NCBI GenBank assembly: GCA_013166775.1
Contig: JABLTJ010000014.1
Coordinates: forward strand, 1 to 64,000
Direction of reading: 5' to 3'
Length of the DNA stretch: 64,000 bases
From: Promethearchaeati archaeon
GTDB taxonomy: Archaea > Asgardarchaeota > Heimdallarchaeia > Heimdallarchaeales > Heimdallarchaeaceae
Below, piece after piece: positions 2,815-10,974 of this stretch. Below the pieces are notes generated by a model that had not been told where the DNA came from, made no database searches, and was given only the letters and a program-made list of their open reading frames with translations. The position numbers and the translations under genes were made by a program. Position 1 is the stretch's first letter. Every line of letters starts with the position of its first letter.

Positions 2815-2909
2815 AAATAACCTTGTTGCAAGGTTTAAGTTTTTTTTTACAACCTACCTTCTTGTCAAGAGGTCTATCATAAGAAGGTGGGTTGACAACA
2901 AGGTTATTT
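2815..2909. repeat. 95-bp element with nested inverted repeats (MITE-like or attC-like)
   Basis: Perfect 14-bp outer IR AAATAACCTTGTTG (2815-2828) / CAACAAGGTTATTT (2896-2909). Inner IR CAACCTACCTTCTT (2850-2863) / AAGAAGGTGGGTTG (2881-2894), 13/14. Confidence 0.85.
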
Positions 2910-2935
2910 GGAAAGAAAACTTGAAGTCTTTTTTC

Positions 2936-3784
2936 TCACTCATCCAAAGAATCTAAGCCATATGCTTTACTTAATCGCACTCGATAATCTGCAATAAACC
3001 TAGTTGTAGGACCACCATCTACAGTAGTGTGATCAATATTGAAAGTAATCCATAGATAATCACGAGGTTCTATTTTATCTAGATTAAGTGACCCATCTTC
3101 ATTAATAGGATATCCTGGTTTTTTATCAATACCTCCAGCATTAATAGAGATATTCTCTGTTGCGATTGGAATTGCTGTTCCTCCCCCTTTAGCATACACA
3201 CCTACTGAGGTAATACCAGCTGTCCCTAGAAAGTTTCTTCGTGAAAAGGGATTTTTGTATATTCGATTCATCAAGAAACGTCTAAGGAATCCTGGTAACT
3301 TAAGTAATAAATCTCTTCCAGATTCTTCGTCTTTATCTAATATACTGTCATCTTTCTTTGATACACCAGACCTGAATACTTCAGTTATCTCCAAAATAGA
3401 TTTTTCATTAGCTTTTCTGATCAATACTTGCGAAGGTACTTTCTTTCCTTTAATTTCCTTCTCTACAATACAAGTAAGATCTACATCCTCGAATATAACC
3501 ATACGTCTTCGTCCCCATTTTATAGCTTGCATACTCGGATGATCTACAAGGGTTTGAGCAAAAATGTAAGATAGATATGCTGTAAAGGAAATTTTTATTC
3601 CTTTTTCTTTGTATTCAGCAATTTTCTTGAGAGGAAGAGTGACATCTATTTCTCCTATTGCATAAACCTTCATAGTTTTTTTACCAATAGAGATGAAATC
3701 AACAACAATATCTCGGCTATGAGTAAAAGGCACAGTATAGTATCTACCATGTTTCGAGTTTTTCATGATTTTCTCTTTTTTCAT
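2936..3784 (-). CDS. 2-oxoacid dehydrogenase acyltransferase (E2) catalytic-domain-only protein
   Basis: GTAGITSVG and DHTTVDGG catalytic motif. No lipoyl or E3-binding domain. Confidence 0.85.
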   Translation of the reverse strand: MKKEKIMKNSKHGRYYTVPFTHSRDIVVDFISIGKKTMKVYAIGEIDVTLPLKKIAEYKEKGIKISFTAYLSYIFAQTLVDHPSMQAIKWGRRRMVIFEDVDLTCIVEKEIKGKKVPSQVLIRKANEKSILEITEVFRSGVSKKDDSILDKDEESGRDLLLKLPGFLRRFLMNRIYKNPFSRRNFLGTAGITSVGVYAKGGGTAIPIATENISINAGGIDKKPGYPINEDGSLNLDKIEPRDYLWITFNIDHTTVDGGPTTRFIADYRVRLSKAYGLDSLDE

Positions 3785-3920
3785 TATTGATAAGATAAAT
3801 AGGTTGTAAGATAAATATTTTGGAAAATCAATAAAAACAACAAGTAGAATAATTTCTGATAGAGTTGATTTAAAAAAATGTTCAAAGGAAAAAAATGATT
3901 TCTTCCTAGTTTTAGGAAAA

Positions 3921-4418
3921 CTAGGAGAATTTCTTCTTTAGATTCTCTCCAAAAATTCTTGCATTCTGAAGATCTTCCTTTGAGGGATAACCTTCATTAT
4001 CGACTATTTTTCCCATCATTCGGATAGCACCTTTACAATAGAAACGTTCTTCCAAAACAGTGATGTTGCCATTTTTATTAATGATGTTCTCCATAGTTTC
4101 AAATACCATCTCTTTAATCTTCTTGGGATTATCTTCCGATTTTGGCATATTTTCATCTGGTCCTCCACTTGTAAAAAATAGAGCAACTGCTTTTCCATCA
4201 ATATTCTTTTTACTAAGTTTCTTCAACCATCTTTTTCCTGTAGATGTGACTCTGAACATCATTGGCCATGTACCAAGTACCAGTAAATCATAGTCTTCTA
4301 TATCTTTTGGTATGCTCTTCTGATTTATAGCTTCTACTCCTAATCCTTCAGCTATTTTCTCTGCTACTTGTTTGGTGTTACCACCTCTAGAATTGTAAAT
4401 TACTATTGCTTTGGTCAT
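3921..4418 (-). CDS. Flavodoxin family protein
   Basis: YNSRGGNTKQVAEKIAEGL FMN loop, YDLLVLGT, VALFFTSGG. Confidence 0.85.
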   Translation of the reverse strand: MTKAIVIYNSRGGNTKQVAEKIAEGLGVEAINQKSIPKDIEDYDLLVLGTWPMMFRVTSTGKRWLKKLSKKNIDGKAVALFFTSGGPDENMPKSEDNPKKIKEMVFETMENIINKNGNITVLEERFYCKGAIRMMGKIVDNEGYPSKEDLQNARIFGENLKKKFS

Positions 4419-4489
4419 GAGTATCCAGAATTATGAATAAAATCAGCTATTTATATTTTTACAACTAGATATATGAGTCTACAAATATA

Positions 4490-4501
4490 ACTACAAGGTT
4501 A
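4490..4501 (+). repeat. Partial copy of dispersed intergenic repeat (ACTACAAGGTTA)
   Basis: 12/12 identical to the 3' end of the 8411-8437 copy, intergenic, same orientation. Confidence 0.5.
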
Positions 4502-4547
4502 CTGAATCAAGATAAATTAAACATTTTTAGAAAAAAAGAAGAAGAGT

Positions 4548-6245
4548 CTATCTCCTTCTGCAAGCTATGAAAACAAGTGATAATAGAGATATGAATCCAA
4601 TTATTAAAACTAAGGATAGATTTTGATTTAGTTCAGGTACAAAGGGGACAGATAACGGATATTCATCCACTACATATCCATTGCTAGAGATTTCATAATT
4701 TCCTACTCCTAACCAATCAGACCAGTAGTTTCCTTCTTGAAGAGTTATGTTATACCAGTAATTTGCGTAACCAGAACTGTCAAGTGCTTGAGAATAAGTC
4801 CCATCACCATTGTCAATAAAATCATTATGGTAAATAGTAGTAAATTTACTTTCAACAAGAACAATTGCATACATTGTATTAGATTGGAATTTATTCGTTT
4901 TTATCAAACAACCATTTGATTTATAGTGAACTAGTCCCATATAGTTTTCAATGAATAAGTTATCTGTAATATCAATTAATATTGATTGAGATGTTGCAAA
5001 ACCATTTTCATTTCTTTCGAAAAAACAATTCTTAAGACTTATTCCAATACTATCATAAATTCTAATTCCGTTAACACAATCTAATATATCAACAGAGTCA
5101 ATTATAATATCTGAACAATTAAACATTGTAATTGCTTGCGAAGTCTGATCGATTAAAATATTATTTATATTTATTATTGAACAGTTCATAAAGAATATTT
5201 GTCCATAATTGCTTGTAATTGTTAAAGAATCTATATTTTTAAATAATTTCACTAGCTTTCCATTAACATAATTATTAGTATTATTGATTGTTAAAGTAAA
5301 CAGTCTTGTAAAATTGTCATCACTAAGTACAAAACCATCACCATCTAGTCTATTGTTTGCAAAATCTAGATATTCATTATAATTAGATTCAATTCCTTTC
5401 TCTACATTCAAGGAACAATTGTTACCAAATACAAGACATTCTTTACAATACCATAGACATAATCCTCTATCATTTTTATTCAATACATTAGAATTGATGG
5501 TGCAATTATACAAATAACTAAGGAAAATCCCAGCATTAGTACAATTAGTTAAGATATTTTCTTCAATCTCCACTAGACTAACATTTTTAACATGAATACC
5601 AACATCAGAATTTGAAATCTTGTTTTCCATAATATAGCTATTATTAGATTTTTCCACAGCAATTCCATTCGAATCACAGAATTCAATTGTATTGTTATAA
5701 ATTATCATATTCGAACCACCAGTATAGCAACTAATCCCATGATAATGACAATCTGAAATAAAATTGGATTCTATTTTCTGATTAGGAGAATCAAGAATTC
5801 GTATACCATAACCATTGCTAATTATTTTGTTATTGTATATTTTAGCTGTATTAGGTGCTATTTCCTGAAAAGATATTCCACACCACCCACCAGATATGAT
5901 ACAATTTCTAATTTCGAAATAATGTGTTGTCCAAAATATGGAAATACCAATAAGTGGAGGATATCCACTTGCATTAATTGCGTAATTCTCAATAATGAAA
6001 GGATTATTTAGAGATCCATCACCTTTAGAGCTGTAAGTTTGGAAACCAGATAGACTATTTATCGAAAATGGGGAATCAGGAAGCGGAGGAAGAAATTTCG
6101 GAGTTTTAACTTCTGAAATTTGTGCTTTTATCAGTTCTTCAAATTTATATGATTGGTTTAATGTAGAAGAAGAGAGAAGAATTAAACAAATTAAAAAACC
6201 AATTAAAAATATTCTTTTCAAATTACTTTTTCCTTGAAATATCAT
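4548..6245 (-). CDS. Secreted NosD/right-handed beta-helix protein with VPE-type C-terminal sorting signal
   Basis: Signal peptide, GDGSLNNPFII, many N..GI repeats, EGNYWSDW, then VPEL + TM + RRR. Confidence 0.85.
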   Translation of the reverse strand: MIFQGKSNLKRIFLIGFLICLILLSSSTLNQSYKFEELIKAQISEVKTPKFLPPLPDSPFSINSLSGFQTYSSKGDGSLNNPFIIENYAINASGYPPLIGISIFWTTHYFEIRNCIISGGWCGISFQEIAPNTAKIYNNKIISNGYGIRILDSPNQKIESNFISDCHYHGISCYTGGSNMIIYNNTIEFCDSNGIAVEKSNNSYIMENKISNSDVGIHVKNVSLVEIEENILTNCTNAGIFLSYLYNCTINSNVLNKNDRGLCLWYCKECLVFGNNCSLNVEKGIESNYNEYLDFANNRLDGDGFVLSDDNFTRLFTLTINNTNNYVNGKLVKLFKNIDSLTITSNYGQIFFMNCSIININNILIDQTSQAITMFNCSDIIIDSVDILDCVNGIRIYDSIGISLKNCFFERNENGFATSQSILIDITDNLFIENYMGLVHYKSNGCLIKTNKFQSNTMYAIVLVESKFTTIYHNDFIDNGDGTYSQALDSSGYANYWYNITLQEGNYWSDWLGVGNYEISSNGYVVDEYPLSVPFVPELNQNLSLVLIIGFISLLSLVFIACRRR

Positions 6246-6326
6246 CGTTAAGGAATATATTTTTAATATCTTAAATGTTTTTAAGCTATTTTTTTTCCTT
6301 TGAAAGCTTCATAAAAGTATTCAAAG

Positions 6327-6355
6327 CATAAGAAGGTGGGAAAACAACAAGGTTA
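6327..6355 (+). repeat. Dispersed repeat copy CATAAGAAGGTGGGAAAACAACAAGGTTA
   Basis: 26/29 identical to 2878-2906. Confidence 0.85.
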
Positions 6356-6416
6356 GCTAAAGATATTATCTGTCCTTTTGTAAATAATAAACTTTTATAA
6401 AGTTCTTCAAAACGGA

Positions 6417-6973
6417 TTGAATATGTCTTGTGATGATAATGAGCAAGCATTGGATGTTACTTTAGGAAGTGGTCGTTGGATGGGGATAGGGCCATTTACT
6501 GTTCAAATTAGTCGTATCCTTCTTTATTTAGCCTCTTTCCTAGTCAGAACAGCATTAGGTGGTTATGGCCTTGAAAGAAGTATTCTCAAAAAAGAAAGTT
6601 CACTAGCAAAATACTGGTGGGGATGGACTTTAGTAGGTGTAACTTCAATTATTATTTTCATTCTTAATTCTTCATATTTCCCTCCCATAGATCCTGGAAT
6701 CTTTTTATTGGTCTGTGTATTTGTCTCTGTTGCACTAATAGCAATCTTTCTCCGTTTTATGAAAAAGAAACAAAATTCTAAGTAACTTGGCAGTTAATTC
6801 ATATGGTATCTACATGTCCACTATGTGTTTGTACTTTGGTTACAATATGCGTTTCTTTTTGTTGAAATTCATGCAATTTTGAAAGCATTGATTGTTTTCA
6901 TTGGAGGATTAGGTCTTAGTTGGTGAGTTATTTTTGTTTTCTGAAAATCCCTGGAGTAGCAAAAGTCATCTAG
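6417..6973 (+). pseudogene. Degraded acyltransferase 3 (OpgC-like) membrane protein, 5'-truncated and multiply frameshifted
   Basis: GPFTVQISRILLY..GLE..LAKYWW. After frame changes it continues NSYGIY / VHYVFVLWLQYAF..ILKALIVFIGGLGLSW / LKIPGVAKVI*, the typical family C-terminus. Confidence 0.7.
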
Positions 6974-7197
6974 ATATTTTCTGAGAAAATTCCAGTATGA
7001 TCGCAATTGTTGCTTGGGTTATATTTTGTCTTCATTGAATTATTGCAAAGGGTATAGAACTAATATATTTAGTTGGTATTAAAACTTAAATCGGAAAAAT
7101 TATCGTTTGTATCCTTTTTTAAATTATTATTACAAATAACAAATTACTATAAACAAAACATAGATAATATTTAAATTAATTAAATTATGTGAGAATT

Positions 7198-7812
7198 ATG
7201 GCTCTAGCTGAATCAGCTTCGTTATTAGGTTTTATTGTTGCCTTTTTTGGATCATTTTTAGGCATGATTAATCTTTGGTATACACGTGAAAAAACAAAAG
7301 TTCTTGGACCTAGAATTAATATTCCTTACATTGAATTCGATGAAATTAAAGAAAAAAAGAGTGAAACAGGTGTTAGACTTAATGTTCTCTTTCAGAATGT
7401 TGGAGATAGAATTTCTTTTCTTATAATAAGAAAAATAACTATAAAGAAAACTATGATTGAAGAAGATCAAAAATCAGTCGTTTTTCAACCTTCAATTGAT
7501 GAAGAAGGATTAATGTTTCAACCTCAAGCACAGAAAATTAGAAATTTTGATATTAAGGTTCCATTATCTAGAGATGAATTGGAAAATTCTGAAATTATGA
7601 TTAGTACTATGTACACTGATCATGTTGGTAATCTTATAGAAAAAGGTTGGAAATTTAGAATTGATGATGAATTAGTTGGAAACTTAGTTTCAATCTGGAA
7701 AAATGAAAAAGTTCTACAGAAGGAACAGAGAAGGATAAATTTTGCAGAACATAGAATTGAACAAACCTCGTTTAAGGAAATAGAAGAAAATAAGATTATT
7801 AAAAATGACTGA
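7198..7812 (+). CDS. Hypothetical protein with N-terminal TM and beta-rich soluble domain
   Basis: Long ORF, hydrophobic N-terminus, no recognised motif. Confidence 0.7.
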   Translation: MALAESASLLGFIVAFFGSFLGMINLWYTREKTKVLGPRINIPYIEFDEIKEKKSETGVRLNVLFQNVGDRISFLIIRKITIKKTMIEEDQKSVVFQPSIDEEGLMFQPQAQKIRNFDIKVPLSRDELENSEIMISTMYTDHVGNLIEKGWKFRIDDELVGNLVSIWKNEKVLQKEQRRINFAEHRIEQTSFKEIEENKIIKND

Positions 7813-8020
7813 TTTATTTTTTCTATTTGCATTAACTTTTCAAAGAGTATGGAATTAATAAATTTAGGAAGAAGAAAAAAAAAGAAGAATTAATTTCTTT
7901 TTCTAGACAAATTAACTAGAGAATTTAAGAATAGATTACTTGTTAGAGGACAATTAAGCTAGTTTTCTCTCCTGAACAATGCATATCTTACTTAATTGAG
8001 AGACATAACATTTACTAACA

Positions 8021-8362
8021 TCAAAGGAAATCTAATATCATAGAAGCTTCGTCCTTTTGAGCTCTTGTTCTTCTGATAGCATCTTTAACAGTACCACTAA
8101 TATTGTATTTTGAGAAATCTTCATGACAAGATACACAGAATAGATTTTCTCGATTATTTTCATGCTTACATTTAGGACAAAAGAATGTTACTTGCTTGTT
8201 TTCTCCCTCTTCTTGTGAAGATAAACTTTCATTATACTTTACAGGAATTCGTTTCTGTTTGAATCTTAGAATGGCTTCTTTCAAATCAAAACCACAGTAC
8301 TCACAAAATCGACTTTCAGACTCATGAAGTTTTTCACAATTTGCACAATAAAGTTCAGACAT
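8021..8362 (-). CDS. Double zinc-ribbon protein (paralogue family member 1)
   Basis: CANC..FCEYCG and CPKC..FCVSC. N-terminal module shared with 13112-13753 and 17078-17392. Confidence 0.8.
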   Translation of the reverse strand: MSELYCANCEKLHESESRFCEYCGFDLKEAILRFKQKRIPVKYNESLSSQEEGENKQVTFFCPKCKHENNRENLFCVSCHEDFSKYNISGTVKDAIRRTRAQKDEASMILDFL

Positions 8363-8410
8363 ATCAAAAAAACAAATTTCATCAAGCCTTAAAAGAATTT
8401 CGAATAAAAT

Positions 8411-8437
8411 TAAGGAGGTGGGTTGACTACAAGGTTA
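8411..8437 (+). repeat. Dispersed repeat copy TAAGGAGGTGGGTTGACTACAAGGTTA
   Basis: 25/27 identical to 2880-2906. Its end extends to GTTAGGC. Confidence 0.85.
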
Positions 8438-8626
8438 GGCAAGAGTTAGAATCAAGCATAAGAAATATCTCGAAAGTAAATATTTGTTTACGAATGAAGA
8501 AAAGCTAAGTATGTTTAGTATTTCGTAATTTAAAGGAGGAAGTGATTATACCAATTTAAAGGTTTATGTGTCAAAGTCTGTTCTAAGCACGTTAAAAGGT
8601 TGAATTAAAGGAATGCATTTTCATAG

Positions 8627-9529
8627 TTATATTCCCAGTAGTTTTTTGGCATTATTACCTAAGATTGCTTTTTTTTCCTCCTCAGTAAAAGGTTGAACAC
8701 CCATTTGTTTTAAAGGCTCGGGTACATTTAGATTCTTGATTCCTTGTACCCATTCTGATTGAGATACTATATGGGTGAACAGGGGCCAATCTGAACCGAA
8801 CAATATTTTCTCTATTCCGCACGTCATTCTTGCATTTTGTAACATTTGTACGAAAATTCCTGGAACATGTTTAAACGCAGATTCCCAAGCAGAGATGTCT
8901 AGATACACGTTTGGATTCTTCGCTGCAACTGCAAATGCTTGATCAGTGAATGGATTACCCATATGAGCCATGATGAAATTAATATTTGGAAAATCGACTG
9001 CTACAGTGTCAATATAGATTGGTTGACAGTATTTTAGATAAGTATACCGTGGTCCTAAACCAGTATGTGCTAGTATGGGGACGTTAAATTCTTCAACTTT
9101 CCTGTAAAAATCATAATACTCCTTAGAATCTGGATAAAATCCAGTTAATGTCCAAAATTTTACTCCCTTGAGACCTAATTCCTCAATACATCTTTCAAGC
9201 TCTACGATAGCCTCAATACCTCTTCGAGGATCAATCCCTGCAAATCCGATAATTTTGTCAGAATAGTTCTCAACAATATCTGCAACGTAATCATTATAAA
9301 CTTTAAAATCCAACTTACTTCGGTATTTCAAGTAACCATCTAAAGCAAGAATCACCGTTTTATCGATACCTGCTTCATCCATTTCTTCCACTAAACGCTC
9401 CACAGAGCCATTAAGTACAGATTGAGGATCAGGACATTTAAAATTTCTAATCATGCTTTCCAACAGTTTATTGAAATCTCCATCGATGATGGTTTCATCC
9501 CATATGTGACAATGAATATCAATTATCAT
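8627..9529 (-). CDS. Amidohydrolase family protein (Amidohydro_2)
   Basis: IIDIHCH, GLKGVK, AHTG, MAHMG, NVYLDIS, ILFGSDWP. Confidence 0.9.
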   Translation of the reverse strand: MIIDIHCHIWDETIIDGDFNKLLESMIRNFKCPDPQSVLNGSVERLVEEMDEAGIDKTVILALDGYLKYRSKLDFKVYNDYVADIVENYSDKIIGFAGIDPRRGIEAIVELERCIEELGLKGVKFWTLTGFYPDSKEYYDFYRKVEEFNVPILAHTGLGPRYTYLKYCQPIYIDTVAVDFPNINFIMAHMGNPFTDQAFAVAAKNPNVYLDISAWESAFKHVPGIFVQMLQNARMTCGIEKILFGSDWPLFTHIVSQSEWVQGIKNLNVPEPLKQMGVQPFTEEEKKAILGNNAKKLLGI

Positions 9530-9680
9530 TTTCTTTCCTCAGAATTTTCCAATTAAGATAGTACAAAAATAAATGAATGATACATTTTAAGTATTTCTCT
9601 GATTGGGATTAATCGTTTGATTGGATCCAAACAATCATCCACTCATCATTGTTGAATTTTATAGAAGAACAACTATGATT

Positions 9681-10877
9681 TTATTTATCTCTCTCTTCTG
9701 AAAAATCTAATACAGTTGCAATAGTTGCTTGAGTAACTTTCTTCATGAAATCAAAATCTAGTTTATCAATAGTATCAGCTTCTGTATGGTAGTAAGGATT
9801 TCTAAAATTGGCTGTATCAGTTATCATCAAAGCAGGAATGTTTTCTTTCCAGAAAGGAGCATGATCTGCTCTAAGTGTATCATGTATCCATTTAGCTATT
9901 TTTTCAAATCTTAAAGGTAATTTTCCCCACAGATATGGAAGCTTTATCTCTTCATTTTTACAGCTTTTACAAAACACTTTTCCTAGATTTTTTGAATTCT
10001 TATCACTTACTACAGAAATGAAATTACCTATCTTCTTGAAAGCTTTTACTTTATAAGATGGTAAAGTTAATGGATTCATAAATGGAGGTAAAATTTGAGA
10101 GTTTTTTCTTTTACTAGTATATCCTACTGATTCTAAGTTAATTACTCCTTTGATTTTTTTCTTCTCTTCAATTGCTTTATTAACCCAATTATTGCTCCCT
10201 ATAACTCCTGATTGACCTATCCATGAAGTTCTAGTCATATTAGATCTTAGATCAATAACATATTTGCAGAATTCTTTCTCTAAATCAGTAAGTTCTTCTT
10301 TTATATCATCAAATGCTTTCTCATATGATTCCAATATTGGTTTACCTTTAGAAATTCTTAATCTAACTTTCGAATAGAATTTTTTCAACATCTTTTGAGA
10401 ATGATAAGACTTATACTTATAGTTCCCATCGAATATTCCCAATTCAATTCCTTTTTCTCTGTGCTTCTGAGACAAGGTAGGATTCAATTCTTCTAAAGTA
10501 AAACTTACAAACCGGATACTTCCTGTGTAATCTTCAGCAGCTAACACTCTTGCTATTTCTAACATTGCAGCTACAGCGGATCCATTATCATCAGCTCCTG
10601 GAGCATTTCTAACGGTATCATAATGACTAGTAACCAGAATTTCAGGTTTGGTTTCATCTCCCAACCATCCTTCGATATTTCTAAAAATAATATCTGAACC
10701 TTCAATTTCAAATGAGTGTTCATTTATTTGTAGACCATATTTTTGAAATTCTGACAAAATATAATCTGCTGTTTCATTGAGTTTTCTGAGATCAACAATA
10801 TGATGTTTGACACCTTCAATCTTCAGTACATGTTGATATAATCTTTCTATTTCCACTTTTTGAAGAATACTACACAT
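9681..10877 (-). CDS. Peptidase M28 family
   Basis: SHYDT, PGADDNGSAVA, FTLEE, INLESVGY, ADHAPFW, NPYYHTEADT. Confidence 0.9.
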   Translation of the reverse strand: MCSILQKVEIERLYQHVLKIEGVKHHIVDLRKLNETADYILSEFQKYGLQINEHSFEIEGSDIIFRNIEGWLGDETKPEILVTSHYDTVRNAPGADDNGSAVAAMLEIARVLAAEDYTGSIRFVSFTLEELNPTLSQKHREKGIELGIFDGNYKYKSYHSQKMLKKFYSKVRLRISKGKPILESYEKAFDDIKEELTDLEKEFCKYVIDLRSNMTRTSWIGQSGVIGSNNWVNKAIEEKKKIKGVINLESVGYTSKRKNSQILPPFMNPLTLPSYKVKAFKKIGNFISVVSDKNSKNLGKVFCKSCKNEEIKLPYLWGKLPLRFEKIAKWIHDTLRADHAPFWKENIPALMITDTANFRNPYYHTEADTIDKLDFDFMKKVTQATIATVLDFSEERDK

Positions 10878-10974
10878 TGAGCTTCAATTGATTCTAAAAT
10901 AATAATTTAAAAGAGTTTTGCGAGAGAGGGAAGTATTTTTTAATGTTTTAATTTCACTCTCTCTGAGATAATCT

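Follow-up and report, generated by a model that had tools for sequence, protein, structure and literature searches.

An 88-bp quasi-palindromic element marks a cassette-type insertion hotspot in two genera of Heimdall-group Asgard archaea

This analysis concerns a run of accessory genes punctuated by a short direct repeat in the genome of a Promethearchaeati archaeon of the family Heimdallarchaeaceae, and the 88-base-pair (bp) element of which that repeat proves to be one end. The genome (assembly GCA_013166775.1, here G000) comprises 3.85 Mb in 115 contigs and is 88.7% complete. We worked on a stretch of 64,000 nucleotides (nt), positions 1 to 64,000 of the forward strand of contig JABLTJ010000014.1, hereafter the window; it begins at the contig end, and the DNA further upstream falls outside view. 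The 27-mer TAAGAAGGTGGGTTGACAACAAGGTTA is found at 2880-2906 and recurs at 6329-6355 with three mismatches and at 8411-8437 with two, always on the + strand, where no match was expected from 100 shuffles. Extended by two more bases, the copies span 29 nt: copy 1 (2878-2906), copy 2 (6327-6355; 26/29 positions, or 90%, identical to copy 1) and copy 3 (8409-8437; 25/29, or 86%). The shorter motif ACNACAAGGTTA matches the window four times (at 2895, 4490, 6344 and 8426), again all on the + strand and with none expected by chance. Its additional match marks a truncated stump of the repeat, AACTACAAGGTTA, at 4489-4501 (+; 0 expected by chance). In every copy identity breaks off right after GGTTA. 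Neither a pattern search nor an nhmmer profile found further copies in the whole G000 assembly, so that the repeat is confined to three copies clustered within 5.6 kb.

All copies are intergenic, and each bounds one to three genes. Copy 1 sits between the ends of a beta-helix gene (1345-2739, +) and an acyltransferase-like gene (2936-3784, -). The stump at 4490-4501 lies between a flavodoxin gene (3921-4418, -) and a NosD/beta-helix gene (4548-6245, -), copy 2 between the latter and two small + strand open reading frames (ORFs), and copy 3 between a double zinc-ribbon gene (8021-8362, -) and an amidohydrolase gene (8627-9529, -). The copies thereby delimit three blocks. Block 1 (2907-4488, -) holds the acyltransferase-like gene, a truncated 2-oxoacid acyltransferase by its Pfam match, together with the flavodoxin gene; block 2 (4502-6326, -) holds the NosD/beta-helix gene; and block 3 (6356-8408, mixed strands) holds the two small ORFs, of 122 and 207 amino acids (aa), and the zinc-ribbon gene. 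An original prediction, made from the letters of the sequence, had described a same-orientation repeat of about 28 bp at three places, a partial copy at 4490-4501, an intergenic position and a common strand for all copies, with one to three genes between them, and an end of identity after GTTA. All of these points were borne out, and the genome-wide search that it had proposed as a check gave the clustered distribution described above.

Copy 1 is more than a repeat. It forms the right end of an 88-bp element at 2819-2906 (+; 104.8 bits with the covariance model R1), the sole complete copy in the genome. We refer to the complete element as Full and to its right-hand 27-29 nt as the tail. Full opens with a 17-bp palindrome, AACCTTG-TTG-CAAGGTT (subsite 1, 2819-2835), which is kept in all Full copies, and continues through a variable spacer containing a run of nine T (2840-2848, +); most Full copies have a T-rich spacer (T4-T9). 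There follows a 35-bp imperfect inverted repeat of 14-7-14 layout (2855-2889), with arms TACCTTCTTGTCAA and ATCATAAGAAGGTG around the central 7-mer GAGGTCT (2869-2875), which reads GAGGACT in all 14 other Full copies. The consensus can be written as AACCTTG-yyr-CAAGGTT, the variable and mostly T-rich spacer, CACCTTCTTGTCAA-GAGGACT-TTCATAAGAAGGTG and finally GGTTGACAA-CAAGGTTA. Five copies of ACCTT/AAGGT are contained in Full. Copies 2 and 3 are half-sites only: copy 2 has neither the left arm nor GAGGACT upstream of it, and no complementary arm was found within 110 nt upstream of copies 2 and 3 or of the partial copies in two relatives (G001 and G011).

The same element was then sought in the family set of 31 genomes, which includes 25 of the same genus and two of a sister genus that carries the element. 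In same-genus relatives the repeat motif occurs once, rarely twice, per genome, and alignment of the flanks invariably placed it at the 3' end of an element of about 88 bp, whose two boundaries are also the sharp limits of conservation. The covariance model gave exactly one strong match per genome in 13 of the 25 same-genus genomes and in both sister-genus genomes; it did not find the element in three other genera of the family (g11-g13), even at E = 5, or in the rest of the order. A paralogue, which we call family 2, is also present once per genome (in G000 at C94:56400-56486; L068:4401-4487), at a stable syntenic intergenic site without an array. It shares the outer layout of family 1 but has the central loop in reverse-complemented form, 15 of the 19 bases being retained.

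Comparison among relatives showed what the extra copies are. In G004 and G007, Full is directly followed by a gene of 661 or 635 aa, for which the terminal TTA of the element serves as stop codon. In G011, Full is followed by an M28 peptidase gene, then by a partial tail and then by the orthologous 648-aa gene, with the same stop-codon overlap as in G004 and G007. To judge from these alignments, G004/G007 and G011 constitute an empty/occupied pair. A second array was found in G001 (a 20-contig assembly), where Full and three tails bound an M28 gene, ADH and DUF6326 genes, and an S49 peptidase gene with a 224-aa ORF. G001's own Full tail and the partial copies of that genome disagree at 4-9 positions. 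Between the S49 stop codon and the end of the repeat there are 37-38 nt, both in G013, where the repeat is Full, and in G001, where it is a tail. The M28 cassette retains its promoter-tail junction in G011 and G001 and, in decayed form, in G017; its gene adjoins Full in G017, G003 and the sister-genus genome G041, and lies between Full and a tail in G011 and G001. In the window, the M28 peptidase gene (9681-10877, -) is 6.8 kb from Full. Homologues of the block 1 genes (acyltransferase-like and flavodoxin) occupy other array positions in G005, G020 and G017. The upstream side is variable too: a saccharopine dehydrogenase gene and an ATC-hydrolase-like gene abut Full in G041 and are 7.6 kb off in G001. 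Block sizes range from 1.4 to 3.4 kb. Cassette order in the relatives' arrays thus differs between species; this resembles the shuffling of units across strains that the original prediction had suggested looking for, and is the opposite of the conserved gene order between copies that it had named as speaking against it.

From these data we conclude, with high confidence, that the 28-mer repeat corresponds to the last 27-29 nt, on the right-hand side, of a conserved 88-bp quasi-palindromic element that is unique in the genome, and that the extra copies are half-sites marking the distal ends of gene blocks inserted beside it. With every insertion an intact element is restored and a half-copy is displaced, which makes the locus a cassette-type insertion hotspot common to two genera of Heimdall-group Asgard archaea. 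A literature search found no description of the 88-bp element or of its arrays. As to the nature of the repeat, the original prediction had offered two options: that the copies are the sites of a gene-cassette system with its recombinase encoded elsewhere, or that they are the ends of a TA-targeting element. The former stood in substance, given the occupied and empty sites, the arrays, their shuffled order and the lack of a recombinase in or near them; the latter did not, for reasons given below.

Some further traces were seen at the edges of these arrays. In the window, a 138-aa ORF at 741-1157, just upstream of the 464-aa beta-helix gene at 1345-2739, encodes only the C-terminal part of a beta-helix/NosD domain and may be a gene stump at the island's left edge. 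At the stop codon of the M28 gene, positions 9655-9683 (AGAAGAACAACTATGATTTTA) bear a faint likeness to a decayed tail, a similarity too weak to call. In G001, locus L041 carries a full M28 gene as first cassette (382-1590), a 130-aa M28 fragment beside an amidohydrolase gene (8210-8602) and, beyond that fragment and gene, a further full-length M28-like copy (~9739-10959); these look like traces of cassette duplication and decay.

Insertions of a mirror-image type helped to place the point of exchange. G018, G007 and G016 carry 5'-half copies of the element (model positions 2-60) that end at GAGGACT and run on into a shared, different right half, R-c, with the palindrome ACGGTAATATTACCGT. Conversely, the Full elements of G007, G016 and G041 have a diverged left half, L-b, joined at GAGGACT to the normal right half. 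With L-a and R-a as the usual left and right halves, all joined at the central 7-mer, G016 and two metagenome contigs of the same population read [L-a-GAGGACT-R-c], a 1.75-kb block, [L-b-GAGGACT-R-a]. The block encodes an AAA_15/AAA_21 ATPase and a 159-aa protein (L051:249-1742, G016 C200). At the same type of junction, G018 (C276; L048:325-2505) carries ArsR, ACR3 and flavodoxin (-like) genes and G007 three small ORFs. The cargo in relatives thus includes a defence-like pair (the ATPase and the 159-aa protein) and an arsenic module. The 7-mer GAGGACT is the only segment common to all combinations of left and right halves, and variation starts at both its edges; the best-preserved tail copies start within ~5 nt of each other, 2-5 nt to the right of the 7-mer. 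All junctions consequently fall in the middle of the inverted repeat, within no more than 12 nt, which favours conservative site-specific recombination. Searches for the R-c half elsewhere, for example in a free attP with an integrase, returned only the three known junctions and two chance matches in or near genes. No viral contig in IMG/VR carried the element core, and a metagenome scan gave only three contigs, two of them from the G016 population and one a chance partial match.

We then looked for an enzyme. None of the cassettes or their surroundings contained a recombinase, and about 12 arrays and loci yielded no trace of an integrase; the 10-20 kb upstream in G001, G004 and G005 hold metabolic genes only. 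In G000 there was no tyrosine recombinase (PF00589, and tblastn with the relatives' integrases), no Cas1 (PF01867) and no IS200/605 Y1 transposase. Staggered-cut duplication by Cas1 or a casposase was ruled out by the missing PF01867 match. Within the genus, tyrosine recombinases are sporadic (above the Pfam cut-off in 12 of 25 genomes), and no copy of the site was found beside any relative's integrase. A XerA-type protein (NF040815, 220 bits) is encoded only in G001 (C11:22587-23678; L053:1441-2532). No orthologue of it was found in the other 30 family genomes, two closed genomes included, and in G000 a GNAT acetyltransferase gene occupies the syntenic position (C75:41484-42443). A XerA/dif site was ruled out on this distribution (1/31 genomes), and the family seems to be without a conserved Xer.

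In contrast, G000 encodes exactly two Resolvase-domain proteins, at C65:89633-90349 (239 aa; within C65:89593-90349, L077:1449-2208) and C80:26355-27059 (249 aa; L078:1489-2238). These serine recombinases are paralogues, 47-48% identical, with the catalytic motifs YxRxSTxxQ and DRLSR intact; the motifs RPPFGY and NPIYRTG in their C-terminal parts resemble those of large serine recombinases. With the C65 protein as query, matches were obtained in 29 of the 31 family genomes, and the best match was 77-92% identical in 22 other genomes, including two closed ones. Judging from these comparisons, the C65 and C80 recombinases are vertically inherited core genes of the family.

The half-sites of the element reappear in front of one of these genes. 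Upstream of the C65-type start codon, from -45 to -4, are two inverted repeats, ACCTT-N6-AAGGT and ACCTTCTTAACAAGGT plus T or A, which are kept across g1 and g10. In g12 and g13 a single palindrome occupies the same place, and that of g13, AACCTTATTGCAAGGTC, agrees with subsite 1 of the window (2819-2835) at 15 of 17 positions. The 3.85 Mb of G000 contain just four spots where ACCTT/AAGGT is found four or more times within 90 nt: the Full element, family 2, the 45 nt just upstream of the C65 recombinase gene and one site in a coding region. By our own estimate, the chance that one of four clusters would lie within 100 nt upstream of either recombinase gene is about 2 in 10,000. The cluster upstream of the recombinase recurs in six of six further genomes (G001, G004, G005, G013, G041 and G042), in five of which the Full element is likewise matched; in G041 the diverged left half misses the pattern. 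Resolvases autoregulate at res, and by analogy the C65 protein may bind these half-sites, with the 88-bp element as its cognate multi-subsite target.

These results suggest the following mechanism. A gene block would insert beside the Full element such that the intact element is re-created and a half-copy is displaced to the block's far end, strands being exchanged midway along the inverted repeat, in GAGGACT or immediately to its right. Such conservative site-specific recombination probably accounts for the insertions, and since the cassettes carry no recombinase, the enzyme would be supplied in trans. Our tentative candidate, to which we would not yet commit, is the family's conserved small serine recombinase (G000 C65:89633-90349). 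With AACCTT...AAGGTT palindromes abutting its start codon, the 88-bp element would be its chromosomal res/dif-like site, and this host enzyme, encoded elsewhere, would act in trans on integrase-less cassettes that exploit the recombinase's own site. To this explanation as a whole we assign a probability of about 55%.

Several observations weigh against it. The tail copies keep neither GAGGACT nor the left arm and hence do not result simply from canonical two-strand exchange in a common overlap. A 7-nt, odd-length centre is the geometry of tyrosine recombinases, serine recombinases crossing over at 2 bp; the centre is thus not obviously compatible with a serine enzyme, yet a tyrosine recombinase is just what G000 lacks. 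Enzymes of the small resolvase type normally delete DNA more readily than they integrate it. The serine recombinase is also present in g11-g13, where the element is undetectable. The shared motif was first noticed by eye, and the link between recombinase and element rests on motif clustering, the only test that was significant: the palindrome ACCTT-N3-7-AAGGT is no commoner genome-wide than chance, and collinear profile similarity between the element and the region upstream of the recombinase was not significant (nhmmer). Neither circular junctions nor strain-level empty sites were found. Finally, G000 contains other arrays with unrelated tails, which point to a more general mechanism.

That last observation underlies the main rival explanation, a recombinase-independent insertion of "tail copies", in which circular or linear DNA enters by short-homology (Campbell-type) recombination through a brief stretch copied from the 3' terminus of any conserved anchor, and selection spares only insertions that do not damage the anchor; the 88-bp element would be one more such anchor, with a function of its own. 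On six small G000 contigs (C8, C40, C57, C69, C88 and C89) there are 16 tails of one type, the 23S type, ending ...GAGTCCTGAGCATC / ...AAGAAGAAGTGTGAGTCCTGAGCATC, and at C94:41180-46607 at least four direct repeats ending ...GATTCTGACTC / ...CAGGAAGGGGATTCTGACTC recur about 1-2.5 kb apart with sharp 3' ends. The 23S-type array is cassette-like, with sharp 3' ends, a ragged 5' extent and a spacing of 0.5-3 kb, and the C94 repeats share their contig with the family-2 element. Beyond spotting these other arrays, the genome-wide scan for direct repeats was too noisy. The lack of a dedicated enzyme in any cassette would also be expected of such a process. However, the L-a/R-c and L-b/R-a chimeras have no more than 7 bp in common, a stretch too short to support homologous exchange; the tails here have 5' limits within ~5 nt of one another in two species, against 26-70 nt of raggedness in the 23S-type tails; and tails within one genome are not homogenised, as the 4-9 differences between G001's Full tail and its partial copies show. 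On the other side, no significant motif unites the three G000 tail families (149-783 of 2000 shuffles scored as well), which keeps a homology-driven process in play as the main rival. We consider this explanation rather unlikely. An improbable alternative is that the 88-nt element is a small structured RNA gene which, like a tRNA gene, served as attB for integrase-bearing elements whose integrases were later deleted, leaving decayed tandem islands. The element has sharp ends with complementarity between its 5' and 3' parts, compensatory changes in three sequences at the outermost pair and strong predicted folding (z = -6.0), and its 3' end is regenerated after insertion, as at tRNA genes. The other strand, however, folds nearly as well (z = -5.6), as expected of any palindrome. 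The covariation is not significant, being confined to one pair with three mismatches (23-45 of 500 shuffles do as well), and variation in the left arm goes uncompensated in the right (P2). Neither an Rfam family nor a tRNA matched the element, no conserved TATA box precedes it, and none of the approximately 12 arrays and loci kept a remnant of the integrases supposed to have been lost. Moreover, the run of T5-T9 in the spacer would act as an archaeal oligo-T terminator on the + strand, which argues against a + strand RNA spanning the whole element, and the family-2 loop, reverse-complemented with its sequence kept, fits a site that is read as a duplex. On sequence evidence, recognition as double-stranded DNA fits better than an RNA gene.

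Two further readings are less probable still. It seems very improbable that the copies are mere operators, at which a protein binding AAGGT half-sites regulates the neighbouring accessory genes with no role in recombination. The same half-sites do abut the start codon of a conserved gene, and copies 2 and 3 do lie in promoter-containing intergenic regions, but distance and orientation to gene starts are inconsistent: copy 1 is between two gene ends, and copy 3 precedes one gene by 47 nt and follows another. The copies all point the same way regardless of gene strand, and they coincide with insertion/deletion boundaries between species. The original prediction had itself compared the copies with integron attC sites and with the ends of a TA-targeting miniature inverted-repeat transposable element (MITE), and the endings GTTA/GTTAGGC, which resemble GTTRRRY, together with the TA flanking the copies are what suggested them. 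Both are now hardly tenable. Copy 1 is the only two-armed copy, the partial copies lack the second arm that defines attC, and neither IntI nor any other tyrosine recombinase was found in G000; integron attC sites were ruled out on these grounds. A MITE or IS630-Tc1 element was ruled out by the restriction to three copies, all within 5.6 kb and without terminal inverted repeats, and by the single Full per genome in relatives.

Among described systems, the closest are the integrative elements that exploit dif and Xer (IMEX) and the pdif modules of Acinetobacter (PMC6449649, PMC13141974, PMC5357621). These too consist of integrase-less modules bounded by a short palindromic host site, acted on by a host enzyme in trans (predicted here), shuffled between replicons or species and leaving one functional site re-created; the site is likewise single in each chromosome, as is the strong R1 match in each of our 15 genomes. 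In contrast to dif, with its 11-6-11 core, the element described here is 88 bp long, with several subsites and a 14-7-14 core, and most leftover copies are single half-sites rather than the full sites of pdif modules. There is no Xer (a XerA-type gene in 1 of 31 family genomes), the candidate is a serine recombinase and the host is an Asgard archaeon. Tandem islands at tRNA and tmRNA genes, including the tycheposons of Prochlorococcus (10.1101/2020.12.28.424599), resemble the present locus in that insertions pile up at one conserved target, that the direct repeat is the 3' part of a target which is regenerated, and that the cargo is adaptive (here arsenic resistance, a defence-like ATPase and peptidases). 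Sublocation rules for such islands go back to Williams 2002, as cited in PMC8813620. They differ in that the target here is no recognisable RNA gene, no block has an integrase, 5' halves are duplicated as well, and the blocks measure only 1.4-3.4 kb.

Integron arrays and clusters of attC sites lacking integron-integrases (CALINs), including those of archaea (PMC9668308), share with the present arrays small cassettes with a recurring recombination site, the addition of new cassettes beside a primary site and, in some cases, the lack of an adjacent integrase. Archaeal integrons need IntI and attC (PMC9668308), whereas here there are neither attC hairpins nor IntI nor an attI-Pc layout, and the cassettes contain one to three genes on either strand, apparently with promoters of their own. 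The res sites of the Tn3/gamma-delta serine resolvases offer the nearest parallel to the element itself: a cluster of inverted half-sites forming several subsites over ~90-120 bp, with the same half-sites directly upstream of the recombinase gene in an arrangement suggestive of autoregulation, as motif clustering indicates here. Unlike res, Full is not adjacent to the recombinase gene, and the recombinase gene appears to be inherited vertically as part of the core genome and not carried by a transposon; the C65-type C-terminus, with the large-serine-recombinase-like motifs RPPFGY and NPIYRTG, also departs from the short helix-turn-helix of Tn3/gamma-delta resolvases.

Asgard archaea are the closest prokaryotic relatives of eukaryotes and have large accessory gene pools whose entry routes are poorly known. 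The published routes are integrase-bearing elements at tRNA genes and transposons (PMC8813620, PMC11529989); for Heimdallarchaeum, Wu et al. 2022 (PMC8813620) described tRNA-adjacent integrations, transposons and site-specific swaps of CRISPR loci. The locus analysed here adds a sequence-defined insertion site with natural occupied and empty alleles and with arsenic-resistance and defence-like cargo, and the candidate enzyme is present in nearly every genome of the family. It is conceivable, if doubtful at present, that Heimdall-family Asgard archaea, lacking a conserved Xer, use a vertically inherited small serine recombinase with a unique multi-subsite site (the 88-bp element, whose C94 paralogue might serve the other recombinase), and that integrase-less cassettes have hijacked this site to enter, leave and reshuffle, as a serine-recombinase analogue of dif/IMEX or of the integron. 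If the link between recombinase and site is true, the two would form a compact pair that could be reconstituted in Escherichia coli. It would also identify a possible Xer-independent chromosomal recombination system and account for the formation of cassette arrays without integrases in this group.

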